From Candidatus Nanoarchaeia archaeon (GTDB lineage: Archaea; Nanobdellota; Nanobdellia; Woesearchaeales; DATDTY01): a stretch of 64,000 nucleotides of DNA. The stretch spans positions 20,482 to 84,481 of the forward strand of contig DATDTY010000033.1 of assembly GCA_035290625.1 (NCBI GenBank), read 5' to 3'. This document shows, piece by piece, positions 32,794 through 38,197 of this stretch; position 1 is the first letter of the stretch; every line of letters starts with the position of its first letter. The translations under genes were made by a program, and so were the position numbers. The notes under the pieces are model-generated. The model saw only the letters and a list, made by a program, of their open reading frames with translations, ran no database searches and was not told the origin of the DNA.

Positions 32794-33190
32794 AGTATTG
32801 CCCAAGAAAACGTTGTCAGTTAGCCCTGACATCGCTCATTCGAACTCGGGCTTTACGAGTAGGAATAGGGAGCGATTTATAAAGGTTGTGGAGCGGATTT
32901 GATATTTTTGATTGGAGAATTAACCCAACGCTTTCCGCAAGCTTCGCAAAACCATCTTTGCTTATCACAAAGCAAGGTTTTTCTCACACTGTCTTTTCTT
33001 ATTCTGTTGCTATTGCAAACTGGACAGTTTGGTCGTTGTTCGTCTTGATTTTCCATCGTTATTACCTTAGCTCTTACTCATATAAGTATAACTTTAGAAA
33101 GGCTATTTTATATATAAATCTTGTCGTTTCTTACTTTACAAAGTATATTATTAAGACACTTTAAATATCAGTTATGATTAATAGGTTTTT

Positions 33191-33358
33191 ATGGGGGAAA
33201 TAAAGATAGTTGTTGACGGATACAAGTGTGAACGTTGTAAACATGAATGGATACCTCGTTCAAGAAAGAAACTTAATCCCATAATCTGTCCTTCTTGCAA
33301 AAGCCCATATTGGAATATTCCTAAGAAGCGGAAAACAAAAAAAGCATCTAAAGGTTGA
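33191..33358 (+). CDS. Small zinc-ribbon protein (55 aa; CERC ... x17 ... CPSC) immediately upstream of the RM gene. Not in the ORF track.
   Basis: ATG..TGA ORF read manually: MGEIKIVVDGYKCERCKHEWIPRSRKKLNPIICPSCKSPYWNIPKKRKTKKASKG. Confidence 0.45.
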   Translation: MGEIKIVVDGYKCERCKHEWIPRSRKKLNPIICPSCKSPYWNIPKKRKTKKASKG

Positions 33359-33361
33359 AAA

Positions 33362-36064
33362 ATGGTTTTAAGAAAATTAACTAAAGAACAGGCGAAAGAA
33401 GAAGTTAAGAAATTAGTAGACAAATATGTCAGGATAGTTGAATCCGGCTCTATTAAAAGATACAAAGAAGAGGATACAAAAGCGGAGTTTATCGAGCCGT
33501 TATTTGAAGCGTTAGGTTGGGATGTCAGAAATACAGAAAATGATGATGAGGTAGTAAGAGAAGAAAAAATCTCAAAGGGCAGAGTAGATTACTCTTTTAG
33601 GATTAATGGAATACCTAAATTTTTCTTGGAAGCAAAAGCACTAAAAGAGGATTTAGACAATATCAAATTCGTGGAACAGGCAGTAAATTATTCCTGGCAC
33701 AAAGGCTGTACCTGGGCAGTCCTTACCGATTTTGAAGCTATCAAGATTTTTAATGCTGAATGGAAAAGCGCAAACCCTTTACAGGCACAATTCGGGCAAA
33801 CCTTGCCTTGTCAATTATTCTTAGAAAAATTTGATACTTTGTGGCTTTTATCAAGAGAAAGCTTTGAGAAGAAACTTCTTGATATTGAAGCAGAAAAATG
33901 GGGTAAAAAAATAAAAAAAACAGCTGTTGATAAACAGCTTTTAAGTGATTTGACAAGATTCAGGGATTTGCTAAACAAGAATATTCTAAAAAATAATTCT
34001 TCAAAGAATATTTCTGGCGATGAATTAGACGAAGCCGTCCAGCGCATAATTGACAGATTAATCTTCATCAGAACTCTTGAAGATAAAGAATTAGAAGCCC
34101 CCATGTTGCAGTCAGTCATCAGGGAGGATTTAAACAAAAGAATCTACAAAAAATTAAACCTCATTTTCAGAAAAATCGATGACATTTACAACAGCAAACT
34201 ATTTACTCCTCACTTATGCGAAGATTTGGACGTAGATGATGAGGTTTTATCAAAGATAATTGGTGGATTGTTTGCTACAACCGATAATACTGTGCGTTAT
34301 GACTTTTCTGCTATTGACGCTGATGTTTTAGGCAACATTTACGAGCAATATTTAGGGCATATTCTAAAGAAAACTGATAAAAGAGCCAAATTAGCAGAGG
34401 GGAAAGCACACAGAAAAGAACAGGGAATATATTATACTCCCACTTATGTAGTAGACTACATTGTTAAAAATACAGTTGGTGAATTAGCTAAAGACAAAAA
34501 ATTTGATTTAAAGAATGTCAAGATTTTAGACCCTGCCTGCGGCTCTGGCTCATTCTTAATGAAAGCATTTGATTATCTTGTCACTCTTGACAAAAAGAAG
34601 AATGGGGAAGTCGACCAGACAAAGCTTGATTTAACTGGGGCTGGCGCTTCATACGGGAGGAAAGTGGAGATATTGAAAAATAATATTTTTGGCGTCGATT
34701 TAGACCCTAAGGCTGTAGAGATAGCTCAGTTGAACTTACTATTGAAAGCAGCAGAGAAAAAACACAGACTGCCAACACTACAAGAGAATATTAAGGTAGG
34801 AAATTCATTAATTGATGATTCTGCTATTGCAGGGAATAGGGCTTTCAAATGGGAAGAACAATTTAAGGATATTATAGCTGATGGTGGGTTTGATGTGGTG
34901 ATTGGGAATCCGCCTTATGTCGAAGCAAGGCAAATAGGACAAAAGTATGTTGATTTTTATAGGGGAAATTTTAAAACCGCCGGTAATAGAATTAATACAT
35001 TCTCTCTATTTATTGAAAAATCAATTAGTTTGTTAAGTGAACATGGCTTATTCGGGATGATAGTGCATAAAAATAGCATACGTTCAAATGATTACATAAA
35101 ATTAAGACAATTTGTTTTGGATAATTGTAAAATATTAAAGATACTTCCAATAGGCGCAGGTGTTTTTGAAGGAGTAACTGGAGAAATGGTTATTCTAATA
35201 TTTCAGAAAGATAGCAATATGAAAGAAAGATTGAAGAATATTGTTTTTCACGGTGGAAAAGATTCAATGTCAAACAAGACTTCTTACCAAAAATTATCTC
35301 AAAGAATCTTTTATGAAATTCCTGGTAATAGATTTAATGTTTATCTAAATGAAACGAAAATAAAAATATTAGAAAAAATAAAAAGCGAGAGTATTGAGCT
35401 TAAAGAAATTGCTTATACTAAACAAGGGATAATTGTTGGAGACGAAGAAAAATATGTCAAAAAAACGAAAGAATCTGAAAAATATAAACCTGTTTTGCGT
35501 GGTAGGAATATATCTAGATATAATATAACCTTTGGCAATGAATATTTATTTTACGTACCAGGTACAGCAGTACTAAAAAGAGGAAAAACACCAGACTTAT
35601 TTGAGAAACCAGAGAAAATTTTGACACAACATGTTTCCGGGAGAATTATAGCCGCTCTGGATTGTGATGAGTATTATGCTTTGCAAACAATTAATCTTAT
35701 TTTCTCAAAGGGTAAAATTTCAAATAAATATCTCTTGGCACTACTCAACAGCAAATTAATTAATTTTTATTACGATAGCTATTTTAATATGGGTTCTGAG
35801 TTTACTACGGCAGTTGCAACAGAAAATTTAGATTTATTACCTATAAAACAAATTCCGGAAAAACAACAGCCCATTATTAAACTAGCAGATAAAATGATTT
35901 CTCTTAACAAAAATCTTAATGGATTAAAAGACAAGCAAACCGACGAAAAAGCCCGTCTTGAGAAAGAAATCCAGAAACTAGATTCTGAAATTGACGAAGA
36001 AGTTTACAAATTGTACGGCATAACAGAAGAAGAAAAGAAGATAATTGAGGAGAGCTTGAAATGA
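33362..36064 (+). CDS. Type IIG (MmeI/Eco57I-like) single-chain restriction-modification enzyme. N-terminal PD-(D/E)xK nuclease, central gamma-class N6-adenine methyltransferase, C-terminal target-recognition region.
   Basis: GRVDYSF ... FFLEAKAL nuclease motif. DPACGSGSFLM (motif I). VIGNPPYV (motif IV). 900 aa. About 33% GC, against roughly 50% in flanking genes. Confidence 0.75.
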   Translation: MVLRKLTKEQAKEEVKKLVDKYVRIVESGSIKRYKEEDTKAEFIEPLFEALGWDVRNTENDDEVVREEKISKGRVDYSFRINGIPKFFLEAKALKEDLDNIKFVEQAVNYSWHKGCTWAVLTDFEAIKIFNAEWKSANPLQAQFGQTLPCQLFLEKFDTLWLLSRESFEKKLLDIEAEKWGKKIKKTAVDKQLLSDLTRFRDLLNKNILKNNSSKNISGDELDEAVQRIIDRLIFIRTLEDKELEAPMLQSVIREDLNKRIYKKLNLIFRKIDDIYNSKLFTPHLCEDLDVDDEVLSKIIGGLFATTDNTVRYDFSAIDADVLGNIYEQYLGHILKKTDKRAKLAEGKAHRKEQGIYYTPTYVVDYIVKNTVGELAKDKKFDLKNVKILDPACGSGSFLMKAFDYLVTLDKKKNGEVDQTKLDLTGAGASYGRKVEILKNNIFGVDLDPKAVEIAQLNLLLKAAEKKHRLPTLQENIKVGNSLIDDSAIAGNRAFKWEEQFKDIIADGGFDVVIGNPPYVEARQIGQKYVDFYRGNFKTAGNRINTFSLFIEKSISLLSEHGLFGMIVHKNSIRSNDYIKLRQFVLDNCKILKILPIGAGVFEGVTGEMVILIFQKDSNMKERLKNIVFHGGKDSMSNKTSYQKLSQRIFYEIPGNRFNVYLNETKIKILEKIKSESIELKEIAYTKQGIIVGDEEKYVKKTKESEKYKPVLRGRNISRYNITFGNEYLFYVPGTAVLKRGKTPDLFEKPEKILTQHVSGRIIAALDCDEYYALQTINLIFSKGKISNKYLLALLNSKLINFYYDSYFNMGSEFTTAVATENLDLLPIKQIPEKQQPIIKLADKMISLNKNLNGLKDKQTDEKARLEKEIQKLDSEIDEEVYKLYGITEEEKKIIEESLK

Positions 36065-36921
36065 CTGAAAAAGATAAAGCTCTCGTTGTCTTCCAAGACA
36101 GGAAAATAAGGAGAGTATGGCATCAAAACCTGTGGTTTTTTTCAGTAATTGATATTGTAGCTATTTTGACGGAACAAGAAGACCCGTATACTGCAAGAAA
36201 ATACTGGAATAAGCTGAGCCAACGGCTAAGAGAAGAGGGAAGCGAAGTGGTGACAAATTGTCACCGGTTGAAACTTCCGGCAGAAGATGGAAAGCTAAGA
36301 GAAACCGATTGCGCTAATACTGAAAGCATATTTAGGATTATCCAATCAATTCCATCAAGGAACGCAGAACCATTCAAAAGATGGCTTGCTAAAGTTGGGT
36401 ATGAGCGTGTGCAGGAAATAGAAAACCCTGAACTAGCGCAGGAGCGCATGAAAGAGCTTTATGAGCAGAAAGGATATTCAAAATCATGGATTGACAAACG
36501 GCTGAGAGGAGTAGCAGTAAGACAAGATCTCACTGATGAATGGAAGAAGAGAGGAATTGAAAGCCAAGACGATTTTTCAATACTCACTGCGGAAATATCA
36601 AAAGCCACTTTCGGCATGACTCCAAGTGAATACAAAAAATTCAAAGGGCTTACAAAGGAAAACCTAAGAGACCATATGAGGGATTTAGAACTCATATTTA
36701 CCATGCTAGGAGAAGCATCAACTGCGGAGATTGAACGCATAAAAGACCCTGTTAAGTTCGCTGAGCACAAAAAAGCATCTAAGGAAGGTGGGAATGTAGC
36801 GAAAAAAGCAAGACTCGAGCTAGAAAAAAAGACGAAAAGCCCGGTTGCGAGCAGAGAAAATTACCTTGAAGAGCCTGAAAAAGAAAAGCGAAAAAGGCTA
36901 CCTGAACCTGAAAAGGATTGA
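36061..36921 (+). CDS. Bro-N-like N-terminal domain plus DinD-like (DNA-damage-inducible protein D family) C-terminal domain; paralog 1
   Basis: ALVVFQDRKIRRVWHQNLWFFSVIDIVAIL (Bro-N / KilA-N-like). KGLTKENLRDHMRDLELIFTMLGE resembles E. coli DinD KGLKKNQKILDHMGSTEL. ATGA overlap with the RM stop. Confidence 0.5.
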   Translation: MTEKDKALVVFQDRKIRRVWHQNLWFFSVIDIVAILTEQEDPYTARKYWNKLSQRLREEGSEVVTNCHRLKLPAEDGKLRETDCANTESIFRIIQSIPSRNAEPFKRWLAKVGYERVQEIENPELAQERMKELYEQKGYSKSWIDKRLRGVAVRQDLTDEWKKRGIESQDDFSILTAEISKATFGMTPSEYKKFKGLTKENLRDHMRDLELIFTMLGEASTAEIERIKDPVKFAEHKKASKEGGNVAKKARLELEKKTKSPVASRENYLEEPEKEKRKRLPEPEKD

Positions 36922-36931
36922 TGATAAGATA

Positions 36932-37003
36932 GGTGAGAAAGTCCACAAGCTCTACGGCATAACTGATGAAGAAAAGAAGCTTATTGAGGATTCATTAAAA
37001 TGA
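36932..37003 (+). pseudogene. Relic 3' fragment (24 codons, GEKVHKLYGITDEEKKLIEDSLK*) of a second RM gene. About 75% nt identity to 35992..36063. Preceded by in-frame stops.
   Basis: Direct comparison: gtccacaagctctacggcataactgatgaagaaaagaagcttattgaggattcattaaaatga versus gtttacaaattgtacggcataacagaagaagaaaagaagataattgaggagagcttgaaatga. The same ATGA stop/start overlap with the downstream gene is present. Confidence 0.6.
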
Positions 37004-37245
37004 CTCAAAAAACACTTGACGGAAAAGACGTTGAAGAGCCAAGTATTTGGTCAGATGGCTCTTTTGCTGAAACTCTTGGTCCGTCAGATATGAAAGTAAA
37101 GATGCGTACTTTTCATATGAAACACGATGAGGAAATGGATTTCAACTGCTCAAATTGCAAGGTTAAAATTTCAGCTCATAACAAGGACTGGCACAATGGA
37201 ATGTGTGATAAGTGTTTCAATAAGGAGTTTTTCCCAGAGGATTAA
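37000..37245 (+). CDS. Small Cys-rich (zinc-ribbon-like) protein, 81 aa
   Basis: CSNCKV ... CDKC motif. Confidence 0.4.
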   Translation: MTQKTLDGKDVEEPSIWSDGSFAETLGPSDMKVKMRTFHMKHDEEMDFNCSNCKVKISAHNKDWHNGMCDKCFNKEFFPED

Positions 37246-37247
37246 AA

Positions 37248-38099
37248 ATGGACAAAGACAAGGCTCTCGTAGCATTTCAGGATAAGAAAATCAGGAGGAT
37301 TTGGTACAATCAGGAATGGTTTTACTCGGTTATTGGCATCGTTGAAGTTCTTACAGACAGCCCAACTCCTAGGCAGTATTGGGGAAAAGTCAAAGACAGA
37401 GAATTCATAGCTCTTGAACTGTCCCCAATTTGGGTACAGTTGAAATTGGCAGCAGAAGATGGCAAATTGCGGTTTACGGACTGTGTTAACACCAAAAATG
37501 CCTTTAGGCTAATTCAATCCATTCCTTCAAAGAAAGCAGAGCCTTTCAAACAATGGCTTGCGCAATTGGCTCAAGAGCGCATTGAGGAGATAGAAAATCC
37601 TGAATTAGCCCAAGATAGGGTGAAAGAATACTATGAACTCAAAGGTTATCCGAAGGATTGGATAGACAAGCGTCTGAGAGGCATTGCCATACGGCAGGAA
37701 TTGACTGATGAATGGAAAGATCGAGGCGTCACAGAAGAAACAAATTTTGCAATCCTCACAAACGAGATAAGCAAAGCAACTTTTGGAAAGACTGTTCAGG
37801 AATACAAGGAACTCAAAGGCCTTAAGAAAAAGAATCAAAACCTCAGAGACCACATGACAGATTGGGAACTCATATTCAATATGCTGGGAGAAAAGGCCAC
37901 AACCGACATCACAAGGACAAGAGACGCACAAGGATTTGAGGAAAATAAGCAAGCTGCGAGAAGAGGAGGCCAAATAGCCCATAATGCGAGAAAAGAACTG
38001 GAACAAGAAACAGGCAAATCCGTGATCTCAAAAGATAATTTTCTAAGCCTTACTGAACAGAAAAAGCTCGAAAACAAGAAGAAAAACGACAAGAAATAG
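37248..38099 (+). CDS. Bro-N-like plus DinD-like protein; paralog 2
   Basis: ALVAFQDKKIRRIWYNQEWFYSVIGIVEVL. KGLKKKNQNLRDHMTDWELIFNMLGE. Roughly 55% identical to paralog 1 over the aligned regions I compared by eye. Confidence 0.5.
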   Translation: MDKDKALVAFQDKKIRRIWYNQEWFYSVIGIVEVLTDSPTPRQYWGKVKDREFIALELSPIWVQLKLAAEDGKLRFTDCVNTKNAFRLIQSIPSKKAEPFKQWLAQLAQERIEEIENPELAQDRVKEYYELKGYPKDWIDKRLRGIAIRQELTDEWKDRGVTEETNFAILTNEISKATFGKTVQEYKELKGLKKKNQNLRDHMTDWELIFNMLGEKATTDITRTRDAQGFEENKQAARRGGQIAHNARKELEQETGKSVISKDNFLSLTEQKKLENKKKNDKK

Positions 38100-38197
38100 T
38101 ATTTATAAAGAAAACCGCCGATTTTTTAACATCCGCTACTTCACATCTACAGGTTGAACAATAGATTTTTCCCACAATCTTTATAAATACTTAACAA

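Follow-up and report, generated by a model that had tools for sequence, protein, structure and literature searches.

Genes of the DinD family are already known from inside restriction-modification (RM) operons. Within Type I RM operons, both a fusion of dinD with hsdS and a dinD/RhuM gene have been described (PMC4996451, PMC9881135), and the RhuM-like genes of RM operons were earlier read as one component of multi-level defence (PMC3710099). The Escherichia coli DinD protein dismantles RecA filaments, according to the work cited in PMC4786428 (Uranga 2011). DinD-like proteins also have a place in current defence catalogues, since E. coli DinD matches a model of the PADLOC candidate family PDC-S13 at 2.4e-121 (PDLC04919).

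Here we analyse a 64,000-nucleotide stretch of DNA from the genome of a very small groundwater archaeon (Nanoarchaeia, DPANN), called the window below, in which two DinD-family genes lie behind a Type IIG RM enzyme rather than inside a Type I operon. The original prediction held that such coupling is not a described RM architecture. Given the Type I precedents this claim is not supported, and the Type IIG context is the only part that falls outside the published DinD/RM screens. The explanation we favour, to which we assign a probability of roughly 0.55 as a whole, is that the window carries a mosaic island acquired by horizontal transfer. Its core would be the RM enzyme, and its DinD-family proteins, BroA and BroB, would be captured passengers, encoded by free-standing and highly mobile cellular genes, and would be neither RM subunits nor RM-specific controllers.

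Location and composition of the island

The island sits between rps13 and the suf operon, in their divergent promoter region, and its proteins correspond to HLD42914-HLD42917 from the MAG of 'Candidatus Nanoarchaeia archaeon'. The predicted open reading frames are all present at their expected positions (Table 1), and the low-GC block that contains them is real, with a GC fraction of 0.36 across the island versus 0.49 in both flanks. The RM gene reaches 0.33 and the two Bro genes 0.41. However, the left edge lies further left than was proposed. L186 holds another copy of the island in a different genomic setting; homology to it begins near 32902 and ends at the right edge, at about 38163. A divergent 59-aa ORF marks the left end. 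At least 10 groundwater metagenome contigs carry the same island at the same site.

Table 1. Coordinates of island features in the window
Feature	Position	Strand	Remarks
59-aa zinc-ribbon ORF	32877..33056	-	divergent partner of Zn55; marks left island end
Mosaic defence island	32905-38163		~5.3 kb; GC 0.36
AT-rich divergent intergenic region	33057..33190	.	read from sequence
Zn55, 55-aa zinc-ribbon ORF	33191..33358	+	CxxC...CxxC; stops 3 nt 5' of RM start
Type IIG RM enzyme	33362..36064	+	single chain, 900 aa; Pfam, PADLOC, motifs
RM conserved 5' arm	33362-34921	+
RM TRD	~34922-35924	+	non-alignable
RM conserved 3' arm ('tail')	35925-36064	+	~140 nt
BroA	36061..36921	+	286 aa; Bro-N DNA-binding domain and helical C-terminal domain
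Relic	36920..37003	+	orphan copy of a Type IIG RM gene's final 28 codons
Cys81	37000..37245	+	81 aa, Cys-rich; CxxC-x17-CxxC
BroB	37248..38099	+	283 aa; second DinD-family (PDC-S13) protein
Right island end	38100..38163	+	T6 run at 38122-38127; L186 homology stops at 38163

The 59-aa ORF, which was absent from the original prediction, is hit by the NCBIfam model of an IS1/IS1595-type N-terminal Zn-binding domain with an E-value (5.4e-6) that falls just short of the cut-off. Zn55 gives a weak match to Pfam Zn_ribbon_8 (7e-4) and falls in a 12-member cluster (at least 90% identity) from Woesearchaeota and other archaea. Directly 5' of the RM homolog, L186/L187 carry a Zn55 homolog (98% over 44 aa) and L097 a less similar one (54% identity), and another adjoins the RM homolog in L123. 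Homologs of the 59-aa ORF likewise adjoin RM-gene homologs in L097 and L123, and a 61-aa ORF at the matching position in L187 is its likely counterpart. In other loci, too, the divergent zinc-ribbon pair accompanies this RM family.

The intergenic region between the pair presumably holds the promoters of both zinc-ribbon genes and of the operon, and it contains TATA-like motifs near 33108 (TTTATATATAAAT) and 33161 (TTTAAATA). A sigma-70 scan of this region remained at chance level, although the sigma-70 model is not applicable to an archaeal host. We infer that the RM gene, BroA and Cys81-BroB are co-transcribed. The T6 run at the right end is a possible archaeal terminator, and T runs also occur within the island genes, which speaks against co-transcription.

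A mosaic Type IIG enzyme

The predicted fusion of nuclease, methyltransferase and target recognition domain (TRD) is supported by profile searches. An N-terminal PD-(D/E)xK nuclease is followed by a gamma-class N6-adenine methyltransferase and a TaqI_C TRD (Pfam HSDR_N 5.7e-8, Eco57I 2e-38, N6_Mtase 3e-27 and TaqI_C 9.4e-21), and the protein matches the PADLOC model REase_MTase_IIG at 2.5e-120. The motifs D...ExK, DPACGSGSF and GNPP(Y) are invariant across 48 homologs (the tyrosine nearly so), and the enzyme looks intact. It would serve as the self-sufficient core of the island, methylating host sites and cutting unmethylated incoming DNA. Compared by blastn with five other alleles, the gene is a mosaic in which a 5' arm with 82-91% identity and a tail with 77-82% identity enclose a TRD that gives no match.

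BroA, BroB and Cys81

Both paralogs exceed the Pfam Bro-N cut-off (BroA 7.5e-9, BroB 1.4e-7) and match PADLOC model PDLC04920 over their full length (9e-119 and 2.5e-114), in agreement with their prediction as Bro-N and DinD-like proteins. They are 58% identical by BLASTP. BroB also matches PDLC04919 at 1.2e-9, and its C-terminal half matches the NCBIfam DinD model PRK11525 at 2.3e-7, far under the cut-off of that model. E. coli DinD is likewise detected by PDLC04920 (2.2e-16) and by Pfam Bro-N. On these profile matches, BroA and BroB can be assigned to the DinD family, which is equivalent to PDC-S13 and thus to a class of defence candidates already catalogued, although profiles other than those of PADLOC and NCBIfam tie the BroA subfamily only weakly to DinD.

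Between the two paralogs lies Cys81, which falls in a 17-member cluster and matched no family in profile searches of Pfam, NCBIfam and PADLOC. Together with BroB it forms a two-gene module with a 2-nt gap, and the same pair of 81-aa and 283-aa proteins recurs in L186/L187 in another genomic context, with amino-acid identities of 87% for Cys81 and 98% for BroB. In P0132 and P0139 the Cys81 domain carries a fused extension of 155 aa.

The AlphaFold2 model of BroA (pLDDT 85.4) has a sole significant match among solved structures, found by two methods, which is the DNA-break sensor DdrC that clamps pairs of DNA breaks (PMC11347143). The likeness is at the level of the fold only, with 10-14% identity and TM scores of 0.4-0.5, and the helical C-domain is of a kind that finds matches easily. 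The Bro-N / Dachshund-like N-domain and helical C-domain would form a DdrC-like DNA binder, and a DinD-family protein might then act on broken DNA or recombination intermediates. It would therefore provide a second layer beside DNA-cutting immune systems, for example by hindering the recombinational rescue of restricted phage DNA or by marking cut DNA. The DNA-end-binding role of BroA and BroB is a putative one, as is any anti-phage effect.

Alternatively, the DinD-family proteins might be abortive-infection or toxin effectors that kill the cell, or halt its growth, once restriction has failed, with Cys81 as the small cognate regulator or antitoxin. An earlier prediction cast the RhuM-like proteins of RM operons as toxins within multi-level defence (PMC3710099), and one PDC-S05 (RhuM) PADLOC model has the DinD N-domain in common. 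Moreover, the Cys81-BroB pair is conserved, and the slots behind related RM genes hold other cargo that resembles toxin-antitoxin systems (M78 peptidase with DUF4411; DUF4258; DUF3368/UPF0175). However, profile searches of the C-domain of BroA and BroB returned no enzymatic motif or family, its invariant residues are mostly Arg and Lys, and the fold matches a DNA binder and no known toxin. In E. coli, DinD is encoded by an SOS gene of the chromosome and is not known to be toxic; BroA lacks a small partner; and in the strain variant L180 Cys81 is a pseudogene with an internal stop while BroB is intact. We therefore consider an effector role unlikely.

Linkage of DinD-family genes to RM genes

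The stop codon of the RM gene (TGA, 36062-36064) overlaps the BroA start codon at 36061, as predicted, and other genomes show such coupling as well. Of the nine loci in the closest RM clade, eight have a gene that overlaps the RM stop by 4 nt, and five have a DinD-family gene behind the RM gene, four of them with an ATGA overlap. The same RM-ATGA-Bro junction is present in L082, the P0157 locus and L188. The linkage recurs in the closest clade and is not general.

These data bear on the proposal that BroA and BroB are dedicated partners of the Type IIG enzyme, whether as a controller, as a factor for anti-restriction or self-protection, or as a modulator linked to DNA damage. In such a partnership they would be translated with the RM enzyme, and their target would be the enzyme itself or the products of its cleavage. 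The junctions just described favour the idea, as does the true DinD ortholog that occupies the slot behind the RM gene in L082, and a functional partnership specific to the clade is possible. A more distant RM homolog is ATGA-coupled to RhuM, and DinD-HsdS fusions exist and stay active (PMC4996451; PADLOC Specificity_I model). Nevertheless, an RM gene neighbour or RM tail was found in none of the 80 closest BroA-homolog loci, where the RM900 query also finds no homolog, and a DinD-family gene was found in none of 82 more distant RM-homolog loci, in a search whose positive control worked. Among the 148 flanking proteins of those 80 BroA loci the top families are Cas1 (6), Cas4 (4) and Cas6e (3), and no RM family is counted more than twice; four BroA homologs are embedded in cas operons, between cas6e and cas1. 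In L082, BroA is frameshifted while the visible RM frame is open (the contig cuts off the RM 5' end). Unrelated genes fill the slot in sister loci, including a 105-aa ORF, a 79-aa and 264-aa pair, a 109-aa membrane protein and a 210-aa ORF. A dedicated controller or anti-restriction partner is thus a poor fit, and we regard this reading as improbable.

Free-standing mobility of BroA and BroB, as in the explanation we favour, can be viewed against the size of their family, which spans the domains of life with more than 8000 matches, more than 595 GTDB loci and 13,714 cluster representatives, and for which no conserved neighbour was found across its loci. The description of such proteins as phage-associated is also unfit for this subfamily, as only 4 of 50,697 phage records contain a BroA-subfamily match.

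Orphan RM tails and a proposed assembly of the slot

The predicted relic of a second RM gene, with its ATGA junction, withstands closer analysis. A profile of the RM C-terminal tail matches it at E = 7e-11 and matched nothing else in a 1.06 Mb control that included the whole window, and a repeat search aligned 35981-36072 with 36920-37011 (92 nt, 74% identity). Its TGA (37001-37003) overlaps the Cys81 ATG at 37000. The relic is 83% identical to the L186-type tail versus 73% to the resident tail, and thus derives from another RM allele. Its differences, 7/3/13 by codon position, are concentrated at third positions.

Comparable orphan tails occur in at least six independent loci besides the window, namely in L082 (two), L155, L156, L161, L163 (three) and L166. 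All are on the same strand as, and downstream of, the RM gene, and they range from 14 to 55 codons. These duplicates of roughly the final 80 bases of the RM gene suggest how passenger genes stack behind restriction genes. Under the explanation we favour, a variable accessory slot lies behind the RM gene and in the window would hold BroA and the Cys81-BroB module. Recombination at the conserved 3' arm, which would double as a homology arm for TRD swaps, would capture unrelated passenger genes, and each capture would leave a second tail copy on the far side of the passenger, in the order tail-cargo-tail. In the window, [RM-tail-BroA] would have been joined to [tail of an L186-like allele - Cys81-BroB]. 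L186 itself has the same Zn55, RM 5' arm and Cys81-BroB together with another TRD and no BroA. The strain variants L081 and L180, which break at either edge of the relic, are in keeping with this route. We infer assembly of the slot in this way from the sequence arrangement; against it stand the varied relic lengths and the fact that neither a recombinase nor a circular intermediate or empty site turned up. Tandem RM loci followed by deletion would be another route to tail duplication.

Indeed, a complete L186-like RM gene might once have stood between BroA and Cys81, and chance deletion might have left 28 codons. The relic would then be junk that calls for no special capture mechanism. Its closer match to a foreign allele and the third-position bias, which indicates that it once was coding, fit this history, as do the microhomology AAAATGACTNAAAAA common to the relic junction and the RM-BroA junction and the degraded relic in L082. 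However, random deletions are expected to leave varied remnants, whereas at least 11 orphan tails, from the window and six loci, keep only pieces of the 3' arm, mostly its very end, and none retains a remnant of the nuclease, methyltransferase or TRD. Nor is it easy to see how three whole RM genes could have given the three relics within 1.6 kb in L163. We hold this history to be possible, if rather doubtful.

It seems very unlikely that the relics are functional, either as upstream ORFs that drive the next gene through ATGA or as mini-proteins that mimic the RM C-terminal helix. Their frames are open, those of the window, L082 (relic 2) and L163 (relic 2) overlap the next gene at their ends, through ATGA or by 4 nt, and several have their own start codons; the third-position bias would also fit, and in L182 and L184 gene-calling programs place a 45-aa ORF on the relic. 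Yet the relic in the window has no ATG or GTG start, and its frame opens at a TTG inside BroA. Several others are truncated or have no coupled gene (L081, L155, L156, L166), and relic 2 of L082 is degraded, with codon-position differences of 12/8/12.

Reading of the island

The island consists of an RM system to which defence candidates have been appended. As first described, it would be one more RM system with catalogued candidate passengers. What makes it notable beyond an ordinary RM island is a tail-cargo-tail pattern behind the RM gene, a link in fold between DinD and DdrC, and the embedding of PDC-S13 genes between cas6e and cas1. Taken together, these features might mean that the 3' arm of the Type IIG gene docks and stacks defence cassettes, and that DinD-family proteins are DdrC-like break binders recruited beside DNA-cutting immunity. 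We give this joint reading a probability of about one in four. In its first part, the 3' arm would capture, stack and exchange single-gene cassettes as tail-cargo-tail arrays. In its second, DinD-family genes would have been recruited repeatedly beside Type IIG enzymes, Type I RM systems and the cas6e-cas1 genes of type I-E CRISPR-Cas, and their products would control the fate of cut DNA, for example by blocking recombinational rescue or by feeding spacer acquisition. If true, tail-cargo-tail arrays would be an integrase-free counterpart of the integron and a concrete mechanism for the embedding of defence genes.

Content and boundaries of the island

The five ORFs, the ATGA junctions, the relic and the low-GC block of the original prediction were all recovered when coordinates, the direct repeat and base composition were checked, with a GC content of 0.36 in 32905-38163 vs 0.49 on each flank. 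The island proteins are in GenBank as HLD42914-HLD42917 (Candidatus Nanoarchaeia archaeon MAG), and at least 10 groundwater metagenome contigs carry the same island at the same site, between rps13 and HTH-sufBD. Along the island the genes are spaced by 3, -4, 78 and 2 nt, which suggests one operon. The RM stop codon overlaps the start of BroA as ATGA, and the relic overlaps the 81-aa ORF (Cys81) by the same ATGA. The 55-aa (Zn55) and 81-aa ORFs are conserved and zinc-ribbon-like, with no family assigned. The Cys81 domain also forms the N-terminus of two 236-aa proteins (P0132 and P0139) that have an unrelated 155-aa extension.

The divergent zinc-ribbon gene ORF59 should be placed inside the island limits. 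ORF59 and Zn55 are found as a pair with RM homologs in the comparison loci L097, L123 and L186/L187, and they may form a regulatory module. The pair lies downstream in L123, with its order inverted. ORF59 resembles a transposase-type Zn-binding domain weakly, below the profile cut-off. A C-protein controller would be a small HTH protein encoded upstream together with a C-box. Neither of the two small upstream ORFs, both zinc ribbons, matches an HTH profile, and BroA and BroB do not fit this type either, since they lie downstream and are not confined to RM loci.

A 17-nt inverted repeat is present 10-20 nt beyond each island end. We rejected the idea that it represents the terminal repeats of a mobile unit, as the segment in common with L186 ends short of it and the L186 copy does not have it. 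The repeat probably corresponds to the BRE/TATA elements of the divergent host genes rps13 and the HTH gene, and on this reading the island was probably inserted in the promoter region of these two genes. A transposon would carry terminal inverted repeats of its own and a transposase, and the island has no transposase. A scan with sigma-70 promoter and terminator models, which are not applicable to an archaeal host, gave results at chance level. A search for an empty site found none among the contigs with the exact flanking HTH gene. All of these also have the island, so the case for insertion draws on GC content and on L186 rather than on an empty site. The HTH gene is a host gene outside the island and may regulate suf.

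Features of the island and of the comparison loci with RM or BroA homologs
Feature	Location	Remarks
Zn55 gene	window:33191-33358 (+)	55-aa zinc ribbon
RM gene	window:33362-36064 (+)	900 aa; conserved 3' arm (tail) 35925-36064
BroA gene	window:36061-36921 (+)	286 aa
Relic	window:36920-37003 (+)	last 28 codons of an RM gene
Cys81 gene	window:37000-37245 (+)	81 aa
BroB gene	window:37248-38099 (+)	283 aa
Divergent zinc-ribbon pair (59 aa + 55 aa)	window:32877-33358 (ORF59 32877-33056, -); L097:715-1412; L123:8628-9089; L186:~876-1300	accompanies RM homologs
17-nt inverted repeat	window:32875-32891 and 38172-38188	16/17 bases complementary; contains TTTATAAA
Small HTH gene	window:38198-38593	before sufB, overlapping annotated sufB start; Pfam HTH_3 1.9e-4
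Strain variants	L081:5240-5467; L180:1-300	correspond to window 36921-37000, the relic edges
Relics	L082:1397-3369	two: one before DinD gene; one degraded, ATGA into 79-aa gene
Relics	L163:4736-6416	three, between 55-aa zinc ribbon, 167-aa ORF and 154-aa ORF
Tail copy	L161:3544-5631	55 codons, beyond inverted M78-peptidase/DUF4411 pair
Relics	L155:4068-5249; L156:2599-3683	right after first downstream gene
Relic	L166:8893-13565	4.4 kb downstream; brackets toxin-antitoxin genes
RhuM gene	L160:9102-10139	overlaps stop of distant RM homolog by ATGA; Pfam PF13310 1.6e-118; PADLOC PDC-S05
cas6e / close BroA homolog / cas1-cas2	L053:7133-10054; L064:7164-10031; L031:7347-10037; L075:2725-5326	type I-E

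The Type IIG enzyme and its orphan tails

Both family assignments of the original prediction, a Type IIG fusion followed by Bro-N/DinD-like paralogs, hold up against Pfam and PADLOC profiles. On its domain content, we regard the 900-aa protein as a predicted single-chain Type IIG enzyme (REase-MTase-TRD). Its PD-(D/E)xK nuclease domain matches Pfam HSDR_N (5.7e-8, 33.3 bits, cut-off 25.1), and the residues D76, E90 and K92 (D...ExK) are invariant in 48 homologs. Its gamma-class N6-adenine methyltransferase domain matches Eco57I (2e-38), N6_Mtase (3e-27) and MmeI_Mtase (4e-13); motif I (DPACGSG; DPACGSGSF) and GNPP are invariant in the same 48 homologs, and the Y of motif IV (NPPY) nearly so. 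The TRD is in the same polypeptide (TaqI_C 9.4e-21, residues 709-828), and the protein matches the PADLOC model REase_MTase_IIG at 2.5e-120. BREX PglX/BrxX, CamA, BseCI and TaqI are the closest solved relatives by sequence. MmeI/Eco57I-type and PglX enzymes have the same nuclease-methylase-TRD fusion, with conserved arms around a hypervariable TRD, and exchange or inversion of the TRD is a known feature of such systems. Alleles of the RM gene are likewise mosaic: a non-alignable TRD separates a 5' arm of ~1560 nt (82-91% nucleotide identity) from a 3' arm of ~140 nt (77-82%).

It is the 3' arm that has been duplicated. The relic and the resident RM tail form a direct repeat of 92 nt with 74% identity (35981-36072 vs 36920-37011). 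A profile of the RM C-terminal tail recovers the relic at E = 7e-11 and has no other match in 1.06 Mb of control sequence, the whole window included. The relic was originally attributed to a second RM gene, and it does derive from another allele, being 83% identical to the L186 tail and 73% to the resident one. In L186/L187 the shared segment lies in a different genomic context (Zn55 98%, RM 5' arm 91% at the nucleotide level, Cys81 87% and BroB 98% at the amino acid level), the RM gene has another TRD, and a 109-aa gene replaces BroA and the relic. Cys81 and BroB are kept there as a pair with the same 2-nt gap.

Orphan tails also occur at other RM loci, including those of distant RM homologs, where they bracket passenger genes unrelated to one another (see table). 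All of those outside the window are on the same strand as the RM gene and downstream of it, and the tail-profile search of the RM loci, from which the P0157 locus was left out, found none upstream or on the opposite strand. Differences between tail and relic at the first, second and third codon positions number 7/3/13 in the window, 0/1/6 in L082 and 6/3/11 in L161, and this third-position excess means that the relics diverged as coding sequence. An HTH/M78-peptidase and DUF4411 gene pair stands behind RM genes in L094:7077-8725 and L161:3632-5364, whose RM proteins share only ~28% identity. The L161 pair is in inverted orientation, with an RM tail copy alongside.

Alignments with strain variants place the recombination breakpoints of the window population at the two edges of the relic. 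One variant (L081) keeps 99.6% identity as far as the relic, diverges after it and has no Cys81-BroB downstream. In another (L180), identity is 98% from the start of Cys81 onward; its upstream gene is a different one, and Cys81 is interrupted by a stop codon. From these sequences we infer that passengers would be captured by recombination at the conserved RM 3' arm, leaving a tail copy behind. A single crossover of a circular molecule carrying tail and cargo would be one possible route; alternatively, two RM-plus-cargo modules might have been joined and one RM body lost.

Integron arrays resemble the tail arrays in that single, unrelated, promoter-less genes are added serially downstream of an anchoring gene, each bounded by one short repeat. 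Integrons, in contrast, employ a tyrosine-recombinase integrase together with attC/attI sites, and the tail arrays have neither an integrase nor an attC hairpin. The repeated element in these arrays is coding sequence, namely the 3' end of the anchoring gene itself; an array has only 1-3 cassettes, which would be acquired by homologous or microhomology recombination. No recombinase of any kind was found among the island proteins or among the cargo proteins sampled from tail-bearing loci. The duplicated RM tails would be a physical footprint of an insertion mechanism, and the first that we found for passenger insertion beside an immune gene. The embedding literature that we consulted explicitly leaves insertion open, and the study that defined the PADLOC phage defence candidates by their embedding in RM and BREX systems offers no insertion mechanism (Payne et al., bioRxiv 10.1101/2024.01.29.577857). 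In our limited literature search, no account came up of directly oriented orphan 3' tails on either side of unrelated passengers.

DinD-family passengers and their possible function

BroA and BroB are 58% identical to each other, and both carry Bro-N (PF02498; 36.5 and 32.5 bits, cut-off 25.6), as does E. coli DinD (32.4 bits). Both are full-length members of the PADLOC candidate family PDC-S13 in an operon-like block with the RM gene, matching model PDLC04920 at 9e-119 (BroA, residues 4-278 of 286) and 2.5e-114 (BroB). For E. coli DinD the values are 2.4e-121 against PDLC04919 and 2.2e-16 against PDLC04920, and on these profiles PDC-S13 is the DinD family. Unlike the PADLOC embedded candidates, which are nested within their host systems, the passengers here are appended, because a Type IIG enzyme encoded by one gene serves as the host system. 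We placed PDC-S13 among the 145 PADLOC candidates according to the database version; the name is absent from the literature searched and from the supplements of the embedding paper.

E. coli DinD has the same arrangement of a Bro-N N-terminal domain and a helical C-terminal domain in ~275-285 aa, and it belongs to the same PADLOC family but to a separate subfamily. Two further models also pick it up: one for a Type I specificity subunit, which represents a DinD-HsdS fusion, and one for RhuM, at the N-terminus. Against the NCBIfam DinD equivalog PRK11525, BroB scores 30.5 bits (cut-off 242) in its C-terminal half only, and BroA has no match. By hhalign, BroA and E. coli DinD align over 64 columns at E = 0.0027, and alignments of BroA with single DinD and RhuM sequences are weak or non-significant, so the link to DinD draws on the PADLOC and NCBIfam profiles. 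By these profiles BroA and BroB are a sister subfamily of DinD, not orthologs. The settings differ as well: dinD is a chromosomal SOS gene, whereas BroA and BroB are in a mobile defence island of an archaeon that lacks LexA and SOS and has RadA in place of RecA.

An AlphaFold2 model of BroA (101-sequence alignment) has a pLDDT of 85.4 and a pTM of 0.57. When this model was compared with known structures by Foldseek, chains of DdrC (PDB 7qvb, 7udi and 8u0g) were the only significant matches (E 8e-6 to 6e-4, ~250 aligned columns). The match is at fold level, with TM-scores of only 0.4-0.5 and 10-14% identity. A phmmer search of PDB sequences for homology to DdrC returned nothing at E <= 1, and we consider the predicted likeness to be only a functional analogy, not family membership. 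DdrC of Deinococcus radiodurans works as a homodimer, sensing pairs of single- or double-strand breaks and clamping them, and it has been described as lacking homologs beyond Deinococcus (PMC11347143). Unlike BroA, it has no link to defence islands. E. coli DinD is SOS-induced and takes apart RecA filaments, according to Uranga 2011 as cited in PMC4786428.

By analogy with these proteins, DinD-family members might bind broken DNA or recombination intermediates beside DNA-cutting immune systems. The main rival explanation, proposed for RhuM, is that they are abortive-infection or toxin effectors. RhuM (PDC-S05) holds the same position behind a distant RM homolog, and one PDC-S05 model has the DinD N-domain in common. 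Pfam, NCBIfam and PADLOC profiles detect no enzymatic family or motif in BroA or BroB, and most residues that are invariant across the BroA family are Arg or Lys. The fold link offers a nick- or break-binding hypothesis for a very large cross-domain family lacking a known defence mechanism, and also for the long-obscure E. coli SOS gene dinD.

Extent of the linkage

The linkage between RM and DinD-family genes is recurrent in the closest RM clade, is not general, and is not new in kind. Within this clade (at least 64% amino acid identity), a gene overlaps the RM stop by 4 nt in 8 of 9 loci, and a DinD-family gene is located behind RM in 5 of the 9 (the window, L082, the P0157 locus, L188 and L186/L187). 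L082 has a frameshifted BroA ortholog and also, in the equivalent slot, a true DinD ortholog (37% identity to E. coli DinD). Sister loci have other, unrelated genes in this slot: a 105-aa ORF with an M78-peptidase/DUF4411 pair after it, a Cys-rich ORF of 79 aa together with a 264-aa ORF, a 109-aa membrane protein, or a 210-aa ORF.

Outside the clade, no DinD-family gene was found at 82 loci with RM homologs (27-82% identity), a search whose positive control worked. Conversely, the 80 closest BroA homologs among GTDB species genomes (59-74% identity, from archaea and many bacterial phyla) have no RM protein homolog and, by regular expression and profile, no RM tail at their loci. All-against-all clustering of the 532 neighbouring proteins at these 80 loci gave no conserved partner, the largest cluster covering 5 loci. 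These results speak against BroA as a dedicated RM partner. The proposed novelty of the coupling is weak too. In addition to the PADLOC candidates, precedents include a functional dinD-hsdS fusion that is still a working specificity subunit (PMC4996451), a dinD/RhuM gene placed among the core genes of a Type I system (PMC9881135) and RhuM-like genes in RM operons, which have been proposed to be part of multi-level defence (PMC3710099). The expected phage association also finds little support, with the BroA subfamily present in 4 of 50,697 phage records.

Among the 148 immediate neighbours at the 80 BroA loci, the commonest families are Cas1 (6), Cas4 (4) and Cas6e (3). In four bacterial MAGs of different lineages (Marinifilum, Syntrophaceae, Bacteriovoracaceae and Fibrobacterota), a close BroA homolog is positioned between cas6e and cas1 inside a type I-E operon, in the same orientation and with short gaps or overlaps. 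The cas6e-cas1 arrangement may reflect one spreading I-E lineage or repeated capture. Because the same gene occurs in operons of both kinds, RM and CRISPR adaptation, it may have a role in the handling of cut DNA. Cas4 adjoins the BroA homolog in four more loci.
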